A stretch of DNA of 34,233 nt from a virus. A program made the position numbers and the translations under genes. The stretch spans positions 1-34,233 of IMG/VR virus record IMGVR_UViG_3300025151_000010. One strand, 5' to 3'. Below the pieces are notes generated by a model. That model had not been told where the DNA came from and ran no database searches. It saw only the letters and a list, made by a program, of their open reading frames with translations. This document shows positions 4,881 through 34,233 of this stretch, in pieces (position 1 is the stretch's first letter; each line of letters begins with the position of its first letter).

Positions 4881-5016
4881 CTGCGTACATCTTTTTGTAG
4901 CGAAGCAAAGTACGGTCGGATATGCCCAGGGCATCAGCCGCCTCCTTAAGCGTTTTGAAGCGTTTTAAGGCCGTTTTAACATGAAGGCGAGTGTGGTATT
5001 CGATATTCAAATTCAT
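4828..5016 (-). CDS. small helix-turn-helix DNA-binding protein (62 aa)
   Basis: TLKEAADALGISDRTLLRYKK is a Fis/excisionase-style HTH. The C-terminus overlaps the HNH start out of frame. Confidence 0.55.
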   Translation of the reverse strand: MNLNIEYHTRLHVKTALKRFKTLKEAADALGISDRTLLRYKKMYADEETHNDLPQRNGVSRD

Positions 5017-5192
5017 ATGTACAAATGCGGGTCATTTTGAATGTCCTCCTCGGGAACGTATCCAGCCCATTCTTGGCAACTGCTACATATTCCAATTCCG
5101 TCGTTTTCATTCCAAAGGTTAGCACCGCAACATTCCGAACCGAGTTCGTATTGAATTTCTACGATTTCCTCCGCTGTAAATTCCTTTTCCAT
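5013..5192 (-). CDS. small Cys-rich protein (59 aa), missing from the ORF track (just under 60 aa)
   Basis: Read by hand: MEKEFTAEEIVEIQYELGSECCGANLWNENDGIGICSSCQEWAGYVPEEDIQNDPHLYI. Its TGA overlaps the next ATG (ATGA at 5013..5016). The plus-strand track ORF 5025..5345 is its antisense shadow. Confidence 0.5.
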   Translation of the reverse strand: MEKEFTAEEIVEIQYELGSECCGANLWNENDGIGICSSCQEWAGYVPEEDIQNDPHLYI

Positions 5193-5441
5193 TGTAGTAA
5201 GTGTAAAGTGGTTAGTAATAGAATCGTCATTGTGAGGCTTGCAAGCACCACAACCCCAATAAGATACAAAAAATTAATTAACGTGCAACCCATTGTACAT
5301 CGAACCATCTTGCGAATGTGTGTTGCTCATCGTGATGAAAACTGAACAACGTAAATGTGAAGTTTGTAACATCGACCTCAAGGAAGCCAAGATGAAGGCC
5401 GTGCCTCCAATAACAGTAGAATAATTTAACGTCTAACATAA

Positions 5442-5924
5442 CTATTTAATTGATTGATAATGCTTTCTCCATAGTAACGCGCAGTACGCCTGGCGTTGCT
5501 TTTTGAATTTGTATTTACGGCGCAATACATTGTCAGCAATGCGAATGAATCGGGTACGGTACCATTCTAAGTCTAACTCCTGGGGTGTTTTGATTTCCAG
5601 GTCAAGAATCAAACTGTACTTATTCGACCAGTAGCCCTCCTCATTTAGGGCGAACAAGATTAGGTCGGCAATTTCCCATTCTCCTATGCGGATATTTTCG
5701 TCCTCAAGAAGTATTTCCTGGTCGCCTTCGTACCCTACTCTTAACTCCCACGTATCGATATAGCGACCCAAATCAAGGTCAATGTATTCGTAGCGGAATT
5801 CATTCTCGGCACATAACTGTACGATGCCTTCCTTAATATCAACCGTGTACCAATATGCACGGCCGTTAATTCTTACTCGCTCCGCCTCGGGAAATACGAT
5901 GGTGTTGTTATTCTTCGTGTGCAT
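5442..5924 (-). CDS. hypothetical protein (160 aa)
   Basis: ORF with a TAATG-type overlap to the upstream gene at 5924. Confidence 0.65.
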   Translation of the reverse strand: MHTKNNNTIVFPEAERVRINGRAYWYTVDIKEGIVQLCAENEFRYEYIDLDLGRYIDTWELRVGYEGDQEILLEDENIRIGEWEIADLILFALNEEGYWSNKYSLILDLEIKTPQELDLEWYRTRFIRIADNVLRRKYKFKKQRQAYCALLWRKHYQSIK

Positions 5925-6142
5925 TATTCCTCGGTTGTAAATTCGTATGCAATCATAAACACGGCTTCACTAAGTGAACGCCATAAAGAATCCATGTATT
6001 CCTCAACATCAACCGAGGCACACGATACGTGCCACTTGTTTGTTCCCTCAATCTCGGGGTAGTATGCGATGTAGAATGTATGACCAGCGAAATCAAACTG
6101 GTAAAATCCTTTTCTAAGTTTTTTGGCTTTTGTAGTATTCAT
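5924..6142 (-). CDS. hypothetical protein (72 aa), first gene after early promoter P3
   Basis: The ATG follows the leader AACCAAAAGAGAAAAGGCA downstream of P3. Confidence 0.65.
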   Translation of the reverse strand: MNTTKAKKLRKGFYQFDFAGHTFYIAYYPEIEGTNKWHVSCASVDVEEYMDSLWRSLSEAVFMIAYEFTTEE

Positions 6143-6164
6143 TGCCTTTTCTCTTTTGGTTTAT

Positions 6165-6199
6165 CCAAATTACAGAACACTATTTTAGTTATACAACAC
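6165..6199 (-). promoter_or_regulatory. conserved early promoter element P3
   Basis: Minus strand reads GTGTTGTATAACTAAAATAGTGTTCTGTAATTTGG, immediately after the terL stop. Confidence 0.55.
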
Positions 6200-6217
6200 C
6201 CCAGGGAAAAAAATTTT

Positions 6218-7390
6218 TTATCGAATATGGTATACGCCGTAGTTGGGATTTGATTTCGTCATATAAACCGAATAGCGTAGGGCATCGATAAGGTGGTTGA
6301 AGGCATCTACGGGAGTGTTTAAGGTTTGCCCGTTTCGGTCTTGCTTCCATTTGTAGTTCCTCATTTCCTTTATGCCATTGTTCGAGCCTGGCGTCCAAAA
6401 TAATTTGTGCCTTCTTAGAATATCAATTCCAGCGTTAACCGAATCCTTGCCTTTTGATGCTGGGCGAATCTTGAATCCCCACCGCTTTAGTTCCTCAATT
6501 GATTTCGGTTCTGCCGAATCGGCATAAATGATTTGACCTTGTATGCCCATGTCCTTAAGCCGTGAGGCGATGTCTGAGTTCGTCATTCCTATTTCGTAGA
6601 GTAGTTCCTCGAAATACAAATTGTCGCCCTTAGAATACACCCCAACCAATGCAGTCGGGTCGTTGCTAAATCCCCAGTCCAATCCGTATGCCAGGAATTC
6701 GGCATCGTTGGGAATGTTGCTGGTTTGAAAAGTGAATATGACTGCCCTGGATTGTGCCCGTTCTCCAAGCCCGTAAATCTTCCAATAAACCTCGTCAGTT
6801 TGTTTAAGTTTTTCGATTTCCTGGCGTAACGATTCATCAAGGAAGGGATTGTCCAGGTAAGTAGTTATATCGAATCTACAATCTTCCCTGGGTATTACCT
6901 TATCATAAATCCAGTGGAATTCTTCCGACGGGTTGAAGTCCATTATTACCTTCTCGGTAGTACGGATATTCAATTGAAAGAAATCCTCGTAGGTTAATTC
7001 ATTGGCCTCGTTGATGAATACCAAATCCCTCTTACGCCCCCGTATCTTTTGGGGCTGGTCAAGGGAAATAAATTCAACCGTATTTCCAAAGAGTTCGTAT
7101 TCGTGGCTTGATTTGTTATGAGCGTCGGGAAAGTACAGACCTTTTTCAGTCAAGATGTTTACGAAGTCCCTCATTACCGAAGCACGAAGTGAAGGGAAAG
7201 TCTTACGGCATATTGTAACCGTTTTCCCCTGGTTGTTATGCCTTAAGGTGTACGAGAAAATAAGCCACAAAAGAATGTTGTAGGTTTTACCCGAACGAGT
7301 ACCCCCTTGTTGTACTACATACCTCTCCTCGCTTTGTTCCAGGTATTCAAATACAACATTTGACTTGAATGTTAATTCGTTTCCAATCAT
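6218..7390 (-). CDS. terL: terminase large subunit (390 aa, short PBSX/Terminase_3-like type)
   Basis: Walker A GGTRSGKT is present, followed by VFINEANE (Walker B-like). The C-terminal nuclease half has GLDWGFSNDPTA, IYADSAEP and DAFNHLIDALRY. There is an ATGA overlap with terS. Confidence 0.9.
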   Translation of the reverse strand: MIGNELTFKSNVVFEYLEQSEERYVVQQGGTRSGKTYNILLWLIFSYTLRHNNQGKTVTICRKTFPSLRASVMRDFVNILTEKGLYFPDAHNKSSHEYELFGNTVEFISLDQPQKIRGRKRDLVFINEANELTYEDFFQLNIRTTEKVIMDFNPSEEFHWIYDKVIPREDCRFDITTYLDNPFLDESLRQEIEKLKQTDEVYWKIYGLGERAQSRAVIFTFQTSNIPNDAEFLAYGLDWGFSNDPTALVGVYSKGDNLYFEELLYEIGMTNSDIASRLKDMGIQGQIIYADSAEPKSIEELKRWGFKIRPASKGKDSVNAGIDILRRHKLFWTPGSNNGIKEMRNYKWKQDRNGQTLNTPVDAFNHLIDALRYSVYMTKSNPNYGVYHIR

Positions 7391-7743
7391 TCATCTTTTC
7401 GCACTACCTCAACATTGACCTTCAATGGCATATTGTCTTGTCCCGTTATCTCCTGGCGTTCGACATACCCTCGGTGTTTGCCCTGGGTTTTAAGGGCGAA
7501 TATAATAGCCGTCATATTGCCCCCGTCAATACCTTGCATAAGTTTACCCTCAATGTAATCCAAGCGCATTTCTTTGATGTTGTCTACTTCCTTTGCAAAG
7601 TCGGGGTCATTACTTAACCAATCGTAATAAGTTGTCCTACCAATACCCACCTTTTTACACGAAGCCGTTACATTGCTTAAGGTCTTTTGGAGGGCATCAA
7701 GCATTGCTTTTTTATGGTGTTCGGTTTTGTTCGGTTTTGGCAT
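7387..7743 (-). CDS. terS: terminase small subunit (118 aa)
   Basis: N-terminal HTH (SCKKVGIGRTTYYDWLSNDPDFAKEV) is followed by a helical region (GNMTAIIFALKTQGKHRGY). It sits directly upstream of terL and is coupled to it. Confidence 0.75.
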   Translation of the reverse strand: MPKPNKTEHHKKAMLDALQKTLSNVTASCKKVGIGRTTYYDWLSNDPDFAKEVDNIKEMRLDYIEGKLMQGIDGGNMTAIIFALKTQGKHRGYVERQEITGQDNMPLKVNVEVVRKDE

Positions 7744-8567
7744 TACTTAATCAGTTGTAAAAATTCATTGCGAGCCTTCTCGTCTTCCTTAAAATATCCA
7801 ACCATCTTAGATGTGGTGGTGTAGGTGTCGTGCTTCTTTACCCCTCGCATACTCATACACATATGTTGTGCCTTTAATACAACGGCTACTCCCTTAGGCT
7901 GTAGTTCCTCCATCAATCGGTCTGCAATTTGCATTGTAATCCTTTCCTGGTTTTGTAGCCTACGAGAATAGGTTTCAAGGGTACGGGCTAACTTGCTCAA
8001 TCCAACGATTTTTCCATCGGGTATGTAGGCAATATGTCCCACCCCAAAGAAAGGGGCTATATGATGTTCGCAAAGGCTATGAAACGGAATGTTGGTTTGT
8101 ACTATCATCTCGTCCATTCCTTCCGAATCGAATACCGTGAAATTGAATTCGGGAGGCGATAAGAATTCACGCATAAATTTGAGGTAGCGTTTTGGTGTTT
8201 CCTTTAACCCTTCTCGTGTTGGGTCTTCGCCCAGGTATTGGAAGATTCGCACCATGTTATCTTCTACCTCCCCGTCTTCTTCTTTTTCCCAGGGGAATAC
8301 CAACCACTCGCCCTGGAGTTCCTTGCGTTTATCGAATAACGCTACGAATGGTTTTTCGGGAAATTCGGCTTTCCACTTAACTTCGGTTGCTCCCGAATCA
8401 ATTAGGTCGTCAATAATAACATCGGCAACGTGAGGATTCATAACGGCTTTTCCAGTTAGTGCGGCTGGGACGGCTCCTCCCCTGGGCACACCGTAGTATG
8501 TTACGTCCTTTGGCAAGGCATTAACTCTCTCGTAAACTTGTTCCCAGGTGATGTAGGTTTTTTTCAT
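7743..8567 (-). CDS. folE: fusion protein: N-terminal Gpt-like mini phosphoribosyltransferase domain + C-terminal GTP cyclohydrolase I (FolE), 274 aa
   Basis: The N-terminal part has YITWEQV, GVPRGGAVPAALTG, VIIDDLIDSGAT (PRPP loop) and EWLVFPWE, which match the blocks of xanthine-guanine PRTase. The C-terminal part has EGLKETPKRY, CEHHIAPFFGVGHIAYIP, GLSKLAR, QNQERIT and HMCMSMRGV, which are FolE signatures. Confidence 0.8.
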   Translation of the reverse strand: MKKTYITWEQVYERVNALPKDVTYYGVPRGGAVPAALTGKAVMNPHVADVIIDDLIDSGATEVKWKAEFPEKPFVALFDKRKELQGEWLVFPWEKEEDGEVEDNMVRIFQYLGEDPTREGLKETPKRYLKFMREFLSPPEFNFTVFDSEGMDEMIVQTNIPFHSLCEHHIAPFFGVGHIAYIPDGKIVGLSKLARTLETYSRRLQNQERITMQIADRLMEELQPKGVAVVLKAQHMCMSMRGVKKHDTYTTTSKMVGYFKEDEKARNEFLQLIK

Positions 8568-9296
8568 CTAAACTCCAGTTTTTTTATTCCAAATATCAAT
8601 GTGCAAACGGCTGGTGTATTTTAGTCGTTCACGTTTACAAATTTCTGCAACGGCTGGTGCGCTTTCCGATAGAAGATTCTTGTCCTCTCCACTCGGCATA
8701 AGCCATACTTGTTCCCTTTTAACGATAGGCAAGTAATCCACTCGTATTTCTTCCCATTCACTTTCAGTAGTTACAACGAATTTGAACATAGCATTCATTC
8801 GTGATACCGCTTTAATGACTTCGGGCTGGTAGGTTTGATTTCTTGTATTGCCCGAATTGGATAGTTTGGGACTAACATTCCATTGGTCGACTTCCCTAAA
8901 AAGGGCATCGCTTGGAAGTATCGTTCCGTTGGTTTCGATTTCAACGAATACCTCGGGGTTTATGAATTCACGAATGTATTGAATGAAATCTACCACCGCA
9001 TCTTGTTGCATTGTAGGTTCGCCCCCCGTAATAATTACATTCGCCCCGTCGTTGATTGCTTCCACGCATTCATCGTCAAGGATTTCTTCTACGGCTTTCG
9101 CCTGGGCATTCATCCATACTTCCAGGGTATCGCATCGGAAGGTTGCCCCGTTCATTAATTCCCCAGTAAACTGTGTACCCATACCTCCACACATAAGGTT
9201 ACAACCCCCCAGGCGCACAAATACGGCTGGAAATCCTGCGGTCTTACCCTCCCCTTGTATTGAGTAGAATACTTCGCTAATCGCTAACTTTCTCAT
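8568..9296 (-). CDS. queE: 7-carboxy-7-deazaguanine (CDG) synthase, radical-SAM QueE (242 aa)
   Basis: N-terminus EVFYSIQGEGKTAGFPAVFVRLGGCNLMC...FRCDT matches QueE, and IITGGEPT is also present. The Cys spacing reads CX3CX18C. Confidence 0.8.
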   Translation of the reverse strand: MRKLAISEVFYSIQGEGKTAGFPAVFVRLGGCNLMCGGMGTQFTGELMNGATFRCDTLEVWMNAQAKAVEEILDDECVEAINDGANVIITGGEPTMQQDAVVDFIQYIREFINPEVFVEIETNGTILPSDALFREVDQWNVSPKLSNSGNTRNQTYQPEVIKAVSRMNAMFKFVVTTESEWEEIRVDYLPIVKREQVWLMPSGEDKNLLSESAPAVAEICKRERLKYTSRLHIDIWNKKTGV

Positions 9297-9672
9297 AGGC
9301 TACTTTGCTGGATTTTGTTTCGGCCAGCGTTATCTTAGTTATGTTTATATGCTCACGAATGAGGTCGAATAGGTGCATAGCCATGTTCTCAGCACTCGTT
9401 TGAAATGGTAATGGAATGAACGGTTCATTGAGGTCGATAAGCGCTTGACACAACGGGTCTTCATCGTGTAGCAAAAAGTAGTGGTCAAACTGCTTAACAA
9501 TCGGTTCAACTATTTCATCGATGTCGCTAAACAAGACCGTCAAATCCCCGTCCATCTCCAAAGAAAATTCACACTCAACATCGTAAGTGTGCCCGTGTAT
9601 TCTACCGCACTTTACCCCCGCTTCTTTATTGCGGTGTGCGGCGTAAAAATGGTATACTTTAATTACTTTCAT
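9277..9672 (-). CDS. queD: 6-carboxy-5,6,7,8-tetrahydropterin synthase QueD (131 aa)
   Basis: Contains FYAAHR, CGRIHGHTYDVE, FDHYFLL, TSAENMA and LAETKSSKV, which are canonical QueD/PTPS T-fold blocks. Confidence 0.8.
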   Translation of the reverse strand: MKVIKVYHFYAAHRNKEAGVKCGRIHGHTYDVECEFSLEMDGDLTVLFSDIDEIVEPIVKQFDHYFLLHDEDPLCQALIDLNEPFIPLPFQTSAENMAMHLFDLIREHINITKITLAETKSSKVAYEKVSD

Positions 9673-10589
9673 TATTCTTGATTTCCGCCGTAGTAGGCAT
9701 ATTGTTTTTTCAATAGCATTCCAGCAAGTCCGTACTTGCCGTAATAGTCCAGGCGTTTAGGTGTAACCTCCATTTCAAAGTGCTGAAGAATGTTTTCCAC
9801 TTTCGTCCTGGTAAGCCCTTCAAGTTTGGCTTTATTAATGTCCCGATTCTTTACCTTGGTGGTTTTATCCCCGTGGTTGAATACCAGGCTACCCCACCGA
9901 TTAACTTGTTGCCAGGAAGTAGAATCCGCACTACTACAAAACGAGCATTGTTTTAGTAGGTTGTTTTCGGTACAACCCAGCAAGTGAATATCAATCGACG
10001 GCTTCTTATTCTTAATGTAGTTAGCCAGGCGAACAACATCTTCCTTGTAGGTCTTGCGATTTGTGATTCTTAATTCGGGTACGGATACGGCAATGTAATC
10101 GCTGAATTCAATTAATCGGTCAAGCCCTTTCTTTCCGTCCTCTTTATGAAAGACGTTTATTTGTCTTAGGTTCGTCATTTCACGCATTCGTTTGCGGAAT
10201 TCCCAGGCTTTTTCTACACCGAGGATTTTTTGACAGTCTACCTCAACGATTGTACCAGTATACCCCACCTCCTCGGTAAAGCCTACGAGTTCCTCTAACC
10301 ACCTTGTAACAAACTTTTCATCTCGCTCCCCAGCGTGTGCCCCAAACATCAAAGTAAATAACCCCGAATCCATTATTGTGTGCCTATGTGCGCTCGTCAA
10401 ATAACCAGGGCTTTGTGTGGTACAAGATTTCATCTTTAATGGCTTGATACCGAATTTGTGGGCGATGAAGGGAAACACGGTAAAGAGGGAGTACTTGATG
10501 TCCCCTATGTCGGTCAACGCCATCGCAAAATCCTGGTTCTCCAGTCCTGCGAAATGCACCTTGATGTTTTGTTGGTCGTTTACTATCAT
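9672..10589 (-). CDS. dpdA: DpdA-like DNA guanine transglycosylase (TGT superfamily), 305 aa
   Basis: IMDSGLFTLMFG matches the TGT DSGGFQ block, IHLLGCTENNLL matches LMGVG, and SSADSTSWQQ matches the catalytic-Asp block. There is no C-terminal tRNA-binding or Zn segment. The gene is embedded in the folE-queDE block. Confidence 0.65.
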   Translation of the reverse strand: MIVNDQQNIKVHFAGLENQDFAMALTDIGDIKYSLFTVFPFIAHKFGIKPLKMKSCTTQSPGYLTSAHRHTIMDSGLFTLMFGAHAGERDEKFVTRWLEELVGFTEEVGYTGTIVEVDCQKILGVEKAWEFRKRMREMTNLRQINVFHKEDGKKGLDRLIEFSDYIAVSVPELRITNRKTYKEDVVRLANYIKNKKPSIDIHLLGCTENNLLKQCSFCSSADSTSWQQVNRWGSLVFNHGDKTTKVKNRDINKAKLEGLTRTKVENILQHFEMEVTPKRLDYYGKYGLAGMLLKKQYAYYGGNQE

Positions 10590-10912
10590 CTTTCAACCCT
10601 TGCACCTCCCCTATTGTCTTCAAATACCTCAACCCAAACGGCATTAAATTCCTGGAGTAATTCCTTTGCAATCATTTCGCAAGACATACCCCAAAAGTGG
10701 CAAGGCGTTAAGTATTTTTTATGTAAATATCTTCGAATCTTGTCCTCCTGGATAAAGATTTCAATCTCTCGGTCATCGTGCCCCACTTCAAAGGCACAAC
10801 GAATACGAAATATGTGTCGGTGTTTGTACTTTAGAAATTCAACTTCGGGCAATGCCCCTTCCCATTGGTGGAAGCCGATAACATCTTGGTCGGTTATTAC
10901 GAGCGTCCTCAT
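10586..10912 (-). CDS. divergent QueD/PTPS-like T-fold paralogue (108 aa), function unknown
   Basis: It aligns by eye to the in-window QueD in three blocks: KHRHIFRIR vs HGHTYDVE, MSCEMIAKELL vs TSAENMAMHLF, and VFEDNRGGARV vs LAETKSSKVAY. It lacks the CxxxHGH Cys. It has ATGA overlaps with both neighbours. Confidence 0.5.
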   Translation of the reverse strand: MRTLVITDQDVIGFHQWEGALPEVEFLKYKHRHIFRIRCAFEVGHDDREIEIFIQEDKIRRYLHKKYLTPCHFWGMSCEMIAKELLQEFNAVWVEVFEDNRGGARVER

Positions 10913-11490
10913 TTTCCTAAGTAATCTTTAAGTAGTTTCCACACCGCCGCTTCATAGGATTCGGCTACGTGCAAAAGCCCTTCTTTTACCACTTCCAATT
11001 CTTCTTCCGTATAAGTGAGTACCAGGTTAGTCGCTGGTTCGATATCCTTAGCATCGTCCTCCTGGGGTTCATCAAAAAAGCCATCGAGGTCAACATCTTG
11101 CTCGGGCATCCATACATCTACCCCCATTTCTTTCAAAAAGCCAGGGTCGTATTCGTTAGCCAGGAGTTCCCAGTCGTATTCCCCCGAATGCACATTGTCC
11201 TTAATTACGAATCGGCGCATAGCCTTAGTATCTGCTACATTGCCAGGGACAATCATAACGGGTACCTCTTTCCACCCTAAATGTTGGTAGGCTCGGAAGC
11301 GTTGATTTCCCCCCTGGGCAACCATGTCCTCATCTACAATAATTGGACGGGCTTCACTCATCCATGAATCCTCCTCAATGCTTTTGACCAAGTTGGCGAA
11401 TTTCTCGTCCCGTATAACCCTGGGGTTGTTTGGGTTTGCTTTGACCTTTGAAATAGGTACGTATTCGACCTTAATTTTCGGCTTCTTCAT
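10909..11490 (-). CDS. ParB/Srx-like N-terminal domain protein (193 aa) with acidic C-terminal half
   Basis: VEYVPISKVKANPNNPRVIRD and GGNQRFRAY correspond to ParB box-type motifs (NPR, GxxRxxA). It is translationally coupled to the deazaguanine genes. Confidence 0.65.
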   Translation of the reverse strand: MKKPKIKVEYVPISKVKANPNNPRVIRDEKFANLVKSIEEDSWMSEARPIIVDEDMVAQGGNQRFRAYQHLGWKEVPVMIVPGNVADTKAMRRFVIKDNVHSGEYDWELLANEYDPGFLKEMGVDVWMPEQDVDLDGFFDEPQEDDAKDIEPATNLVLTYTEEELEVVKEGLLHVAESYEAAVWKLLKDYLGK

Positions 11491-11905
11491 ATGTATTGTA
11501 GACTTGATTTATTTCGGCAATGAATTCCTTCCAACGAACGGGCGCACAAGTACACGGTCTTGTATAGGGGTGTTGAAATAGCCTGGCGTGTAGCGTTGCA
11601 ATGAGGTCAAGTTCACTCTTTTGAAGTACCTCGCTATCCTTGTCCCGAAAGACAGTCCAGTTATTGTATTCATTTTCGGTCATACATAAGGGTTGTTTGT
11701 AAGGGAACAAGGCGTTCAGTTTTTCCTTGCGTTCATCACAACCGCAATCTTCCCCCGCAATAAATTTGACCAGGCTTTTAATCCCAGTCGCTTCCGTAAT
11801 TTTCTCCACGGTATCCCCTAATCCTTTCGCCTTGGGTTTTGCGCTTTTCTTCCTTGTACTGCTGGTATTCTTCTTCGCAGTTGTTTTTGATTTTTTCTCT
11901 GACAT
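11471..11905 (-). CDS. hypothetical Lys-rich / Cys-containing protein (144 aa)
   Basis: Basic N-terminus followed by GLGDTVEKITEATGIKSLVKFIAGEDCGCDERKEKLN. The first 128 nt overlap the sigma ORF out of frame. Confidence 0.6.
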   Translation of the reverse strand: MSEKKSKTTAKKNTSSTRKKSAKPKAKGLGDTVEKITEATGIKSLVKFIAGEDCGCDERKEKLNALFPYKQPLCMTENEYNNWTVFRDKDSEVLQKSELDLIATLHARLFQHPYTRPCTCAPVRWKEFIAEINQVYNTYEEAEN

Positions 11906-12362
11906 TTTTTAAGGTAATAAAGATTGATTTAGCACTAATGTTTGTTGCCCTTGCCAGGCTTCGTATCGAATGACCCTCCTCCAAATACACCTTCAAGAGT
12001 TTACGGTCATACCAATGTTGTTCTTCTAATTGCTTTTCTACGGCATTTAGAAGCGTTTTGAAGGCGTTTTCGTAATCGTTCTGTATACTGGCATCAAAAC
12101 TAAACGAAACGTCGTCTAAGGGCTTCTCTTTAGATTTGCGATGTAATGATGTAACCATATTCCCCAGGGCAGTAAAGATGTAGGCCGTGTTTAACTGGCC
12201 GTTGTATGTTAGTCGATTCAAATCGCCTTCCCTTTCCTGGATTGTATGCAATTTCATATACAAGTCTTGAACGATGTCCTCTTCAAAGCCCGACGGCGCA
12301 CCTAAGTAGACTGCAATCGCAATCCATTCGTCGTGCCGTTGTGCTATGTCGGTTAAGGTCAT
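11778..12362 (-). CDS. sigma-70 family, ECF-like RNA polymerase sigma factor (194 aa)
   Basis: The region-2-like block is EEDIVQDLYMKLH. The region-4 HTH is HSIRSLARATNISAKSIFITLKNVREKIK. The size is typical of group-4 sigmas. Confidence 0.7.
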   Translation of the reverse strand: MTLTDIAQRHDEWIAIAVYLGAPSGFEEDIVQDLYMKLHTIQEREGDLNRLTYNGQLNTAYIFTALGNMVTSLHRKSKEKPLDDVSFSFDASIQNDYENAFKTLLNAVEKQLEEQHWYDRKLLKVYLEEGHSIRSLARATNISAKSIFITLKNVREKIKNNCEEEYQQYKEEKRKTQGERIRGYRGENYGSDWD

Positions 12363-32090: not shown

Positions 32091-34233
32091 TTACGGTTCT
32101 TCAGTTCCGCCACCGCCCGTGTCTACCTCGGATTCGTATGCGCTTGCTATAATGTTAGAAACCACCACAAAAGGTACTGACGGGGCATTAGGTTGTTGAG
32201 TGGTTCTCGTTCCGTTTACTGTATTGATGTTCCCCAGGGAAGTACCTTGCGACCCCGTACCCACAAATGTTATTCCGTTGTTATTGGCTGACGGCGTACC
32301 CACATTCCAGTTGTTGCCCGTGCTTGATGCCGAGTAAATGTTTATGTCGGGGTATGTCATTAAAGTAACCTTCGCTTCTTCCTTCAACATATCGTATTGA
32401 ATACCGTCGATTTTATAGTAGTAACCCGATATGTTTATTGTTTCGCTTAAGTCCAGGTCAAGCCACTGCCCTACTGGAAGCCGTAGGGTAAGTTCTACGA
32501 GCCTGGATTGTGAAGAATAGATGCGAGATATATAACCGAGCCAAAACTCGCTTAGAATCGTTTTTTCAGGGGCATCGCCACTAAGGGTAGATTCAAGACT
32601 AAACGCCAGGCTTCGAGAAGTCGACGCAGTTGGATAGGCATTGTACGGGCTTATGATTGGGAAGGAGGTTTTTAATGAGCCACCGAAATACCAATCGTCC
32701 GAAGATTTCAGCCCGTTGTAATAGAATAAAAGGAAGTTAATTTGAATCGGATTTAAGCCGTTATCCAATGCCTGGAATAATTGAATATCTGTGGTCGATG
32801 CAACACTCCCGTACTGGTTTATGTCCCGAATCAAAGTAGGTGGGAATACTTGGAAAGGGGATTGCACCTTCAAATCCTTGCTACCAAAATCTACCGAGGT
32901 GCTACTCTCCGATGACCCAAATTCACGAACGGCGTTTTGGGTAAATGCTTGGTTTTGGAAATCCGTTGATTTTTTATGCTTGAACGAAAGCCTTTTGGCT
33001 ACGTCAACCTTCTTGTGTACCACGGAGGAAATATCGGCGTACTTGCTCCAGTCTTTTGTTGCCCCGTTATCGTACCAATCCTTAAGCGGTTCTACATCGA
33101 TTCGCGAATCACTAATCGGAAGTAAAATACAGTTGAATGTTTGTAATACCCCGTTCAAGAATTCAGCCACTTTCACTTTAGGCATTAACTCGCCAAAATT
33201 GATATTCGTATTGCTACTTGTATTCGGTCCCGATGTACATTCGAATGTTATATTGCTAATCTGCGCTCCCGATTGCGTAGAAGAATAACGCATTGTAATC
33301 AAATCCCCAGCGGCGAGAGTAACCGCAAAAGAATCCGTCTTATTTCCCGTAGTGGTATGCGTATTTCCATTGGCTACGCTTGAACCATTCTTGTATAGTT
33401 TTGAGGCGATTGTTCCACTTTGGGTAGTGGCTACATAGTACGAGTTTGTGAATGAATATAACCCAGCCGTAGGCGCAGTAAAAGTACCCGAGGTATAGTT
33501 CATTGCATTGACCGTATCTAAGGCCTCAGCCGTGTAGGTCATTGTAACATAAAAGTTACTCATACCAAAGTTGTAGGTCGTCGCCCTGGACACTTCAAAT
33601 TTAGGTACGACGGTGGCTACATTTAATGTACCAGCGTAAGCCGAGGGGCACACATAAAGGTCATCAAGGTGGGAATTCGTATAGAAACTTCCCTGGCTAT
33701 CATATCCGTAATGTGTGAAAATCGCCTTTACCATTTCGGTCAATAAAAGGGCTGGTTTCAAATCGGAAATGGTAACGCCCCCCGTACTTGTCGCTATGTT
33801 TTTTGAGATAGAAGTACCAGCCGATGAATAGTTAAAGGCTTCGCCCCAGGCAATCACGGGGTACATAACCTTACCACTAAGCAAGTTTCCGTTCCAGGAA
33901 TTCGTTATGTTTTGGGAAGTACGGGCATGAGTATAGTCGTCCCATTGAATCGCCTGGAGAGTATCTTCTCCCATAGACGAGGACAGTTTTTTGTTGTCCC
34001 CGTAAAACACGATTGAATAGTCCTGGGGTTGCCCGTCCTTGAATGTTACGCTATTTAATTCTACTACGCCGTTGAATACTTCGATGCCGTCTATTTCGAT
34101 AACCGCTGGGGTCTTGTTGTGGGCATCGTATCCACCTACAACATCAACATTGTAATAGTGTTTGAAAGCCTTATTATTTCGGGTTGATGCTGGTACCTTA
34201 AACGATTGGGAATAATCGCTGACAACCGATTTA
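32091..34233 (-). CDS. 3' part (plus junction overlap) of the 745-aa tail-tip/baseplate-like structural protein gene; the true start is at 194 across the circular junction
   Basis: The frame stays open upstream of the track start (GTG at 34010) to the window edge and joins in frame to 194..1. The protein is Ser/Thr/Asn-rich and typical of tail tip or fibre proteins. Confidence 0.8.
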   Translation of the reverse strand, partial: KSVVSDYSQSFKVPASTRNNKAFKHYYNVDVVGGYDAHNKTPAVIEIDGIEVFNGVVELNSVTFKDGQPQDYSIVFYGDNKKLSSSMGEDTLQAIQWDDYTHARTSQNITNSWNGNLLSGKVMYPVIAWGEAFNYSSAGTSISKNIATSTGGVTISDLKPALLLTEMVKAIFTHYGYDSQGSFYTNSHLDDLYVCPSAYAGTLNVATVVPKFEVSRATTYNFGMSNFYVTMTYTAEALDTVNAMNYTSGTFTAPTAGLYSFTNSYYVATTQSGTIASKLYKNGSSVANGNTHTTTGNKTDSFAVTLAAGDLITMRYSSTQSGAQISNITFECTSGPNTSSNTNINFGELMPKVKVAEFLNGVLQTFNCILLPISDSRIDVEPLKDWYDNGATKDWSKYADISSVVHKKVDVAKRLSFKHKKSTDFQNQAFTQNAVREFGSSESSTSVDFGSKDLKVQSPFQVFPPTLIRDINQYGSVASTTDIQLFQALDNGLNPIQINFLLFYYNGLKSSDDWYFGGSLKTSFPIISPYNAYPTASTSRSLAFSLESTLSGDAPEKTILSEFWLGYISRIYSSQSRLVELTLRLPVGQWLDLDLSETINISGYYYKIDGIQYDMLKEEAKVTLMTYPDINIYSASSTGNNWNVGTPSANNNGITFVGTGSQGTSLGNINTVNGTRTTQQPNAPSVPFVVVSNIIASAYESEVDTGGGGTEEP
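34135..34233. repeat. 99-bp terminal direct repeat, copy 2
   Basis: Identical to 1..99. Confidence 0.95.

Follow-up and report, generated by a model that had tools for sequence, protein, structure and literature searches.

Why would a phage place a phosphoribosyltransferase-like domain in front of GTP cyclohydrolase I (FolE)? The question is raised by one open reading frame (ORF) of a small marine phage whose 34-kb record is complete and carries terminal repeats; the window analysed here is this whole stretch of 34,233 nucleotides. Working from the letters of the sequence, a first-pass annotation had proposed that the ORF joins a Gpt-like mini phosphoribosyltransferase (mini-PRT) to FolE within a DpdA-type deazaguanine cluster. 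It had suggested that the domain recycles guanine freed by base exchange or, alternatively, acts on a deazapurine base.

A short Gpt-like domain fused to FolE

The ORF occupies positions 7743..8567 and was found on the minus strand, the annotation having given none. It encodes 274 aa plus a stop codon without interruption and consists of the mini-PRT domain, an acidic linker and FolE. The four sequence blocks that had been quoted for it were all present: YITWEQV at aa 5-11, GVPRGGAVPAALTG at aa 26-39, VIIDDLIDSGAT at aa 50-61 and EWLVFPWE at aa 87-94. A chance motif match and a frameshift or assembly artefact were excluded, given the uninterrupted ORF, the complete record with its terminal repeats, and a full-length architecture that is common to >100 clusters at 65-93% identity.

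The C-terminal part of the protein (aa 102-273; 7746..8264, minus strand) is a GTP cyclohydrolase I of type IA. It matched PF01227 over profile positions 2-178 of 179 (E 6e-66) and scored 208.8 bits with TIGR00063, above the cut-off of 181.6, which bore out the proposed in-frame fusion to a complete FolE. The CEHH motif (C166-E-H168-H169) and C237 were present, and its C and H together with the distal C were invariant in an alignment of 25 sequences. By analogy with E. coli FolE, we take the Cys-x-His-His and the distal Cys to be the zinc and catalytic residues.

Profile searches and structure prediction, named by the first-pass annotation as checks on its Gpt-like assignment, both came out in its favour: Gpt-like profiles were matched and a type I PRT fold was modelled. 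The AF2 model of the N-domain (aa 1-100; 8268..8567, minus strand) had a pLDDT of 95.6 and a pTM of 0.86. Its top Foldseek matches were all XGPRT, and VIA-align superposed it on E. coli and Yersinia XGPRT with a best Z of 11.4, an rmsd of 2.8 Å and 98 of 100 residues aligned; across the XGPRT structures Z ranged over 10.4-11.4, and 97-100 of the 100 residues could be aligned. The top structural matches were all 6-oxopurine PRTs of type I, and these matches, the model and the PRPP motif VIIDDLIDSGAT together identify the type I PRT fold. When the protein was compared with the PDB by phmmer, E. coli XGPRT was found at E 2e-5, and the family profile found XGPRT at E 7e-9 in two collinear pieces. 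The N-domain also matched phrog_8995 (E 2e-7) and NF006613 (E 1e-7), the latter at 31.3 bits against an equivalog cut-off of 138 and over profile positions 90-122 of 159 only. No family was matched in a Pfam scan of aa 1-105 at E<=10, so that the gathering threshold of PF00156 was not reached, and the mini-PRT family is outside the current Pfam model. The Gpt likeness of the domain is not a matter of chance. Sequence, profile and fold support its description as a minimal, loop-less relative of Gpt that is fused in frame to a complete FolE. In the full-length AF2 model (pTM 0.48) the two domains were not packed against each other with confidence, and a docking prediction for FolE and the PRT domain returned no answer (score 0.00), which speaks neither for nor against docking.

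The domain had been described as lacking the long hood of Gpt. Eleven hood residues between Lys115 and Trp134 are indeed gone, but the description was imprecise, since the largest loss, of ~35 residues equivalent to Gpt 50-84, comprises one core strand and the flexible catalytic loop. In the AF2 model the helix of aa 32-37 runs almost directly into the strand of aa 50-56, and the flexible loop (loop II), which would link the second core strand to the strand of the PRPP motif, was absent by both alignment and model. In other type I PRTs this loop closes over the active site. Because the loop and one core strand are missing, the activity of the mini-PRT may be low or absent.

Conservation of the remaining residues was counted over 150 representative clusters sharing <=50% identity. 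The PPi loop P28-R29-G30-G31 (8475..8486, minus strand), which a HMMER alignment to 1a95 equates with Gpt S36-R37-G38-G39, retained P in 146 of 149 clusters, R in 130 (with K in 11 more) and the two G residues in 142 and 149. In the PRPP-binding motif VIIDDLIDSGAT (aa 50-61; 8385..8420, minus strand), alignment to Gpt paired D53/D54 with D88/D89, D57 with D92 and S58-T61 with T93-T96; D53 was found in 149 of 150 clusters, D54 in 147, D57 in 138 (E in a further 6), G59 in 146 and T61 in 147. The stretch from K80 to W88-L-V-F-P-W-E94 (8286..8330, minus strand) aligned with Gpt K115 and W134-I-E-Q-P-W-D140, the 11-residue deletion lying between them, and the counts in this hood region were 121 for K80 (plus R in 13), 135 of 145 for W88, 142 for P92, 135 for W93 and 136 for E94. 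In Gpt, W134-I-E-Q-P-W-D140 is the purine pocket of the hood.

Residues R29, D53, D54, D57, S58-T61, K80 and W88 thus align with Gpt R37, D88, D89, D92, T93-T96, K115 and W134, whose roles in ligand contact we assume as described in the XGPRT and HGPRT structure papers. These positions were 87-100% conserved across the 150 clusters when R/K, D/E and S/T swaps were counted. Conservation of the positions that contact ligands in Gpt indicates selection for catalysis or for the binding of ligands. In Gpt and HGPRT, the Asp that corresponds to D57 is taken to contact the purine N7; 7-deazapurines have no N7.

The operon and the distribution of the module

Genes of the operon overlap or abut one another. 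The start codon of the fusion abuts the QueE stop codon (TAG-ATG), and its stop codon overlaps the TerS start (TAATG). The DpdA-type context proposed for the locus was recovered, as the other pathway genes lie directly upstream of the fusion in the same operon, all on the minus strand. They encode a QueE-like radical SAM CDG synthase (8568..9296; weak Radical_SAM and Fer4_12 matches), QueD (CPH4 synthase; 9277..9672; PF01242, E 6e-21), a divergent candidate DpdA/TGT-like DNA transglycosylase (9672..10589; phrog_887 'queuine tRNA-ribosyltransferase', E 9e-21) and a homologue of DpdL, the proposed CDG decarboxylase (10586..10912; phrog_17812, E 8.5e-21). The DpdL homologue matched the phiST and ACP17 DpdL loci in tblastn and has the LxxxHRHxF signature (L-KYK-HRH-I-F) that was defined for DpdL in PMC10516641 (section 16). 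The DpdA/TGT-like protein had no Pfam match, and tblastn against cultured phages returned only a Faecalibacterium phage Roos protein, which is 41% identical and adjoins a DpdL homologue, and two weak TGT matches. This protein would be the candidate guanine-releasing enzyme. QueC was not found in the complete phage genome. Because QueD, QueE, a DpdA-like protein and DpdL are present without QueC, the phage probably has 7-deazaguanine in place of DNA guanine, as far as gene content can predict. Megablast of positions 5000-12000 against cultured phages gave no match.

The mini-PRT module was found in hundreds of sequence clusters and is common in phages with 7-deazaguanine clusters. Of the best 150 representative clusters, 54 showed fusion to FolE, and a search for the same fusion in other phages, as the first-pass annotation had advised, yielded 34 records of cultured phages, none with an annotation beyond 'GTP cyclohydrolase'. 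The view that the fusion was undescribed agreed with the literature, in which we found no paper describing a mini-PRT-FolE module and no mention of it in three key phage papers, Hutinet 2019, Hutinet 2023 and Olsen 2023; in GenBank, the fusion already stands in phage genomes under the cyclohydrolase name. Annotation pipelines either give this name to the whole protein or mis-split it, as in PaMx25. Among cultured phages with FolE, only about a tenth have the mini-PRT.

Other arrangements were also found. In a QueC-QueD-QueE contig the mini-PRT is fused to the non-homologous FolE2 (PF02649), and it forms a separate gene overlapping or adjoining folE in locus L006 and in Flavobacterium phage immuto (gp211/gp210). 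The mini-PRT was also seen joined to a DpdL-like domain in P0140, to a MazG-type pyrophosphatase in P0249 and to DpdA-like parts, each on a single contig; the contigs of the DpdL and MazG fusions are short. Stand-alone copies are frequent, some of them not beside a cyclohydrolase; one such homologue belongs to a replication module on a 5.6-kb contig that carries no que genes. The stand-alone homologues P0123 and P0148 are on short contigs. In cultured phages, all mini-PRT matches were inside or beside the FolE gene except the two weakest (E 0.07, unannotated fragments).

QueE is conserved beside the fusion in 86 of 88 loci. Of these 88, many of them only short fragments, 47 had a DpdA-type transglycosylase, as did all four of the annotated or complete genomes examined (source phage, immuto, PaMx25 and Vibrio 1.207.B). 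Among 80 IMG/VR relatives, mostly close kin, the fusion occurred in both DpdL-type (29) and QueC-type (31) clusters, and in cultured phages it accompanies Gat-QueC (PaMx25) or QueC (Vibrio 1.207.B). Because the fusion occurs whichever deazaguanine base the cluster makes, this distribution points to action of the module at the guanine/GTP end, which all these clusters have in common. The split form is carried by a full-replacement phage, immuto, in which fdPreQ1 amounts to 345,000 per 10^6 nucleotides, a value read by the authors as complete modification (PMC10516641). Cellulophaga phage phiST had no mini-PRT homologue, even at E<=1. Since phiST reaches full 7-deazaguanine replacement (PMC10516641) without such a homologue, the module is dispensable.

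Guanine recycling and other possible roles

The reading that we put forward, and to which we give about an even chance, is that the mini-PRT converts guanine and PRPP to GMP and so refills GTP. Its basis is observed: the fold, the conserved residues at Gpt ligand-contact positions and the genomic coupling. The DpdA-like transglycosylase would take guanine out of the DNA and put in a 7-deazaguanine base, which FolE, QueD, QueE and DpdL would build from GTP, and each inserted base would then spend one GTP and free one guanine; the duplex genome contains 14,937 guanines. The PRT domain would recapture the freed guanine as GMP, which the guanylate kinase and nucleoside diphosphate kinase of the host would turn back into GTP for FolE, closing the loop, and removal of free guanine would pull the base exchange forward. 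In this scheme we infer that guanine is the substrate, that catalysis can do without the flexible loop, that host kinases complete the cycle and that DpdA is pulled forward.

Guanine recycling fits the retained Gpt ligand-contact positions, the coupling to GTP cyclohydrolase and an occurrence that is independent of the base made. In its favour, the domain has partnered with both FolE and FolE2, GTP cyclohydrolase I families that are not homologous. Because GMP is not a FolE substrate, the fusion would give no direct channelling. The loss of the flexible loop and a core strand, the full replacement in phiST without the domain, the small share of FolE-bearing cultured phages that have it and the homologue on a contig devoid of que genes also weigh against recycling. 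The single-contig DpdL and MazG fusions count against recycling, as they fit nucleotide-level chemistry equally well. In its fullest form, the proposal holds that a guanine PRT of ~100 residues is active without the flexible loop and serves a dedicated loop from guanine through GMP and GTP to 7-deazaguanine, making G replacement nearly self-financing and pulling the DpdA exchange to completion; we lean somewhat against this form while treating it as a serious possibility. To our knowledge, an active domain of ~100 residues would be the smallest type I phosphoribosyltransferase known.

PRT folds are also used for regulation, as in PyrR and PurR, and the domain might be a non-catalytic ligand sensor or scaffold that binds guanine, GMP, PRPP or (p)ppGpp and tunes the activity or assembly of GTP cyclohydrolase. 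The deletion of the flexible loop and a core strand is consistent with this, and a covalent link to two unrelated GTP cyclohydrolases suits control better than precursor supply three reactions away; in addition, the structural neighbours include PyrR (Z about 7) and the ppGpp-bound PRT-like protein 5vog (Z 9.0). We nevertheless consider a sensor unlikely. As in active enzymes, conservation is strong at the PPi loop, acidic dyad, N7-type Asp and stacking Trp, stand-alone copies are frequent and not always beside a cyclohydrolase, and the full-length model lacks confident interdomain packing. Quite unlikely, in our judgement, is a deazapurine PRT like TubE/ToyH, which would convert CDG (or 7-deazaguanine or preQ0) and PRPP to a 7-deazaguanine nucleotide, for decarboxylation by DpdL and then replication or for another nucleotide-level purpose. 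TubE is a CDG-specific PRT in vitro and belongs to a FolE-QueD-QueE pathway without QueC that is followed by a decarboxylase (PMC6112128; bioRxiv 10.64898/2026.04.15.718813), and the source phage shares this gene logic, with a PRT, the proposed CDG decarboxylase DpdL and no QueC. The metagenomic fusions of the mini-PRT to the DpdL-like domain and the MazG-type pyrophosphatase would also fit, although each is known from one short contig, and dpdL with dpdA gave no dDG in E. coli, for which the authors raised the possibility that a further enzyme is required (PMC10516641, section 16). However, clusters of the QueC and Gat-QueC types, which make different free bases, contain the same fusion, and a DpdA-type transglycosylase, which uses a free base, occurs in the 47 loci and the four genomes counted above. 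Moreover, the DNA of phiST is fully dDG and its genome gave no match to the domain. Guanine/xanthine enzymes are the closest in structure, and conservation reaches 92% at the Asp that lines up with the N7-contacting one.

The domain could also belong to a general purine-salvage auxiliary gene that supplies nucleotides from degraded host nucleic acids, its fusion to FolE reflecting genome compaction only. Such a gene would account for the stand-alone homologue whose contig shows a replication module and no que genes, and fusions arise easily where operon genes overlap or abut. Repeated independent fusions to FolE, FolE2 and other deazaguanine-pathway proteins make this explanation very unlikely, as does the position of the cultured-phage matches inside or beside the FolE gene, the two at E 0.07 excepted.

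Phages use 7-deazaguanine DNA modification against restriction, a system under active study, and the mini-PRT, as a conserved component of the pathway, touches on the cost of replacing a quarter to all guanines and on the fate of the expelled guanine. As a guanine PRT it would add a salvage arm to the pathway and might bear on heterologous reconstitution, which has sometimes failed. If active on CDG, it would point to a nucleotide-level route, at odds with the prevailing view in which every such modification follows replication. A loop-less PRT of 100 residues would also be a useful minimal model of the fold.

Comparison with known systems

The dDG cluster of phiST (FolE, QueD, QueE, DpdL and DpdA3; Hutinet et al. 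2023, PMC10516641) has the same pathway content as the source phage, again without QueC. In contrast, the phiST FolE has no PRT domain, its genome is 78-79 kb rather than 34 kb, and tblastn detected no similarity between DpdA3 and the DpdA-like protein of the source phage. The same module is represented by a stand-alone homologue of 131 aa, encoded directly upstream of folE in a deazaguanine cluster, which is 26% identical over aa 2-97; the HMM covers only aa 50-96 of the source phage domain. Tubercidin and toyocamycin biosynthesis use PRPP-dependent deazapurine PRTs, TubE and ToyH, which are encoded with FolE, QueD and QueE, as the mini-PRT is. The tubercidin pathway resembles the source phage in gene content, having no QueC and a decarboxylase that follows (PMC6112128), whereas TubE belongs to PF00156 and to the secondary metabolism of Streptomyces, in clusters that lack DpdA.

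The small archaeal and epsilonproteobacterial 6-oxopurine PRTs, namely Pyrococcus horikoshii 1VDM, Sulfolobus HGXPRT (4Z1O/5BQP) and Helicobacter pylori XGHPRT (7KL6), formed the next structural rank at Z 9.3-10.6, and 1VDM aligned end to end with the mini-PRT family profile (E 3e-7). Unlike the mini-PRT, these are free-standing cellular enzymes of 150-180 residues that keep the loop region. Closest is Gpt/XGPRT (E. coli 1NUL, 1A95-1A98 and 4JLS; Yersinia pestis 5XTK and 6KP5; NF006613), which shares the type I PRT fold and is 27-31% identical to the phage domain over Gpt residues 3-146 in structure-based alignment (Z 10.4-11.4). The two are collinear from the PPi loop through the PRPP motif and its acidic dyad, the next Asp and the Lys before the hood to the W-x-x-x-P-W-[DE] purine pocket. 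Gpt has 152 residues and acts in cellular salvage, whereas the phage domain has ~100, is usually fused to FolE and is found in phages.

Structure and conservation of the PRT-FolE fusion

The interval 7743-8567 holds, on the minus strand, one uninterrupted ORF of 274 aa, and the plus-strand frame across it contains many stops. All four sequence blocks quoted in the first-pass annotation were found in the minus-strand translation. Residues 102-273 form a full GTP cyclohydrolase I domain (Pfam, profile positions 2-178 of 179, E = 6e-66), and the ORF passed the cut-off of the NCBIfam folE equivalog TIGR00063 (208.8 bits versus 181.6), confirming that a complete FolE lies in frame with the N-terminal domain. 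The FolE part has the CEHH motif and the distal Cys, which were invariant in an alignment of 25 relatives. Some PRT-FolE fusions (metagenomic relatives P0203 and P0266) contain inteins within the FolE domain, at profile position ~69/70 adjoining the catalytic CEHH motif: a mini-intein in one case and an intein with an HNH endonuclease in the other.

For residues 1-100, Pfam gave no match up to E = 10. Matches to PHROG 8995 'phosphoribosyl transferase' (E = 2e-7) and to NF006613, the Gpt model (E = 1e-7), both covered the PRPP-motif region only. A phmmer search of PDB sequences aligned the domain with E. coli XGPRT in two collinear segments (E = 2e-5); with a family profile of 42 sequences this match improved to E = 7e-9, and the Pyrococcus purine PRT 1VDM aligned with the profile end to end. 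In AlphaFold2 the domain had a score of 82-94 as part of the full-length model, and modelled from the family alignment it reached pLDDT 95.6 and pTM 0.86. The top 30 Foldseek matches in the PDB were PRTs, headed by E. coli and Yersinia XGPRT (E ~3e-5, TMq 0.70). VIA-align superposed 98 of 100 residues on Gpt residues 3-146 (Z 11.4, rmsd 2.8 Å), followed by archaeal and Helicobacter 6-oxopurine PRTs (Z 9.3-10.6), HGPRT/APRT (~8) and PyrR (~7). By this agreement of phmmer, family profile, AlphaFold2, Foldseek and VIA-align, the N-terminal domain is a genuine PRT, and the Gpt-like assignment of the first-pass annotation holds at the level of both profile and predicted fold.

Alignments to Gpt showed that the phage domain lacks ~35 residues corresponding to Gpt 50-84, a core strand and the flexible loop closing over the active site, and 11 more residues of the hood between Lys115 and Trp134. 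In the AlphaFold2 model, helix 32-37 leads nearly straight into the PRPP-motif strand 50-56. The earlier description of a missing long hood was thus imprecise: 11 hood residues are indeed gone, but the larger deletion is the catalytic loop region. The remaining site aligns with Gpt as P28-R29-G30-G31 with S36-R37-G38-G39, D53-D54 with D88-D89, D57 with D92, S58-G-A-T61 with T93-G-G-T96, K80 with K115, and W88-L-V-F-P-W-E94 with W134-I-E-Q-P-W-D140. In XGPRT/HGPRT structures, the roles of these Gpt residues concern PPi, ribose/Mg, purine N7, the 5'-phosphate, O6 and base stacking. Across 150 representative clusters with mutual identity of at most 50%, these positions were 87-100% conserved, counting R/K, D/E and S/T swaps (for example, D53 in 149/150, G31 in 149/149, T61 in 147, D57 in 138 plus 6 Glu, W88 in 135/145). 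Judged from the alignment, this pattern is that of a working ligand site, not of a decaying remnant.

Gene neighbourhood and predicted DNA base

The window is a complete virus record of 34,233 bp with 99-bp direct terminal repeats (1-99 and 34135-34233), and all ORFs of at least 200 aa but one are on the minus strand. ParB, DpdL, a DpdA-like gene, QueD and QueE lie directly upstream of the fusion on the same strand, and TerS and TerL lie downstream, making 6218-11490 (minus strand) one tightly coupled operon. Its stops and starts overlap or abut (TAG then ATG at 8567/8568, TAATG at 7743), so that the packaging genes follow the DNA-modification genes without a break.

The 108-aa DpdL homologue (10586-10912, minus strand) has the LxxxHRHxF signature, and its matches include the DpdL loci of Cellulophaga phage phiST and of ACP17. 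The adjacent TGT/DpdA-like protein (9672-10589, minus strand) is very divergent, with no Pfam match and phrog_887 as its only family match. Faecalibacterium phage Roos was the only close cultured counterpart of this pair. Because a DpdL homologue stands beside a DpdA-like protein and QueC is absent from the whole genome, the predicted product, by comparison with phiST (PMC10516641), is phiST-type 7-deazaguanine (dDG) DNA in a phage of only 34 kb. If every guanine were replaced, 14,937 of them would be exchanged in each genome copy.

Distribution and architectures of the domain

An exhaustive HMMER search of 1.84 billion representative proteins gave 464 clusters at E ≤ 1e-3. Among the best 150 of these 464, PRT is followed by FolE in 54, and the others are stand-alone proteins or fragments. 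A word-indexed search gave at least 120 matches from marine and other metagenomes, and the best 120 were essentially all full-length (97-100% query coverage, 64-93% identity). Sought in other phages, as suggested in the first pass, the same fusion was found in 34 cultured-phage records, including phages of Pseudomonas (PaMx25, NP1, JG012, JG054, Quinobequin), Vibrio (VpKK5, 1.207.B), Stenotrophomonas, Xanthomonas, Variovorax and Sphingomonas, all labelled merely GTP cyclohydrolase. In the PaMx25 RefSeq record (NC_041953.1; locus L002, 5883-6813) the gene is mis-split into gp38, a 'hypothetical protein' in another frame, and folE gp37 from an internal start; tblastn placed both domains in one continuous frame.

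Split forms also occur. On a QueD-QueE-PRT-FolE-DpdL phage contig, a 132-aa PRT protein overlaps the folE start, and in Flavobacterium phage immuto gp211 is immediately upstream of folE gp210 within a QueD/QueE/DpdA/DpdN/QueF cluster. In one 564-aa protein, P0214 (2967-4661 of its contig), encoded downstream of QueC, QueD and QueE, the mini-PRT (aa 31-129) is joined through ~160 residues with no family match to a complete FolE2 (GCYH-IB; PF02649). FolE2 is a type IB cyclohydrolase non-homologous to FolE.

Rarer fusion partners of the domain are a DpdL-like domain bearing the HRH signature, a MazG-type pyrophosphatase, and what seems to be the C-terminal half alone of a TGT/DpdA-like protein. 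The last fusion, P0127, lies between QueD and ParB in two assemblies (L091 1655-2449, L092 1641-2435) and may have arisen by deletion or represent a new arrangement. Each of these three fusions comes from a single short contig or a near-identical pair, and we give them little weight. A stand-alone 145-aa mini-PRT, P0131 (L094 3235-3672), lies within a replication/recombination module (SSB, PDDEXK nuclease); its 5.6-kb contig carries no que genes, so the mini-PRT may also occur outside deazaguanine clusters.

Candidate functions and comparison with known systems

The best-supported reading, to which we give about an even chance, is that the domain is a guanine PRT for salvage, an activity proposed from its relatives, retained residues and genomic coupling. 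For each base inserted, DpdA would free one guanine and FolE would spend one GTP; a guanine PRT with host Gmk and Ndk would return the freed guanine to GTP. The nearest relatives are guanine/xanthine enzymes, and the Asp aligned with the N7-contacting Asp is kept. The two unrelated enzymes to which the domain is coupled have in common only that they consume GTP. The final base appears immaterial: among 80 IMG/VR relatives fetched, a DpdL homologue was present in 29 and a QueC homologue in 31, and cultured-phage Gat-QueC and QueC clusters have the domain too. Against salvage, the catalytic loop is missing, the PRT product would not be channelled to FolE because GMP is not GTP, and phiST manages with no detectable homologue of the domain.

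The lost loop and the covalent link to cyclohydrolases would instead suit a non-catalytic sensor controlling FolE, which we consider unlikely because the catalytic dyad is conserved and the domain often stands alone. Slightly less probable still is a TubE-like PRT acting on CDG or another deazapurine, despite a precedent in the tubercidin pathway, a QueC-less CDG pathway in which a PRT is followed by a decarboxylase (PMC6112128), and the hint of a deazapurine substrate in the PRT-DpdL fusion; clusters for different bases contain the same fusion, DpdA was found wherever enough genome could be inspected, and no copy of the domain was found in phiST. That a general salvage gene was fused by accident is improbable, as independent fusions recur.

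The first-pass annotation knew of no described PRT-FolE fusion, and our literature searches agree: Hutinet 2019, Hutinet 2023 and Olsen 2023 do not mention a PRT, and full-text searches for DpdA or 7-deazaguanine with phosphoribosyltransferase gave only unrelated papers and secondary-metabolite work. The fusion sequences themselves are already public, and for the stand-alone form there is a named family, PHROG 8995. We class the domain as a minimal Gpt-like PRT subfamily in its own right, dedicated to the deazaguanine clusters of phages.
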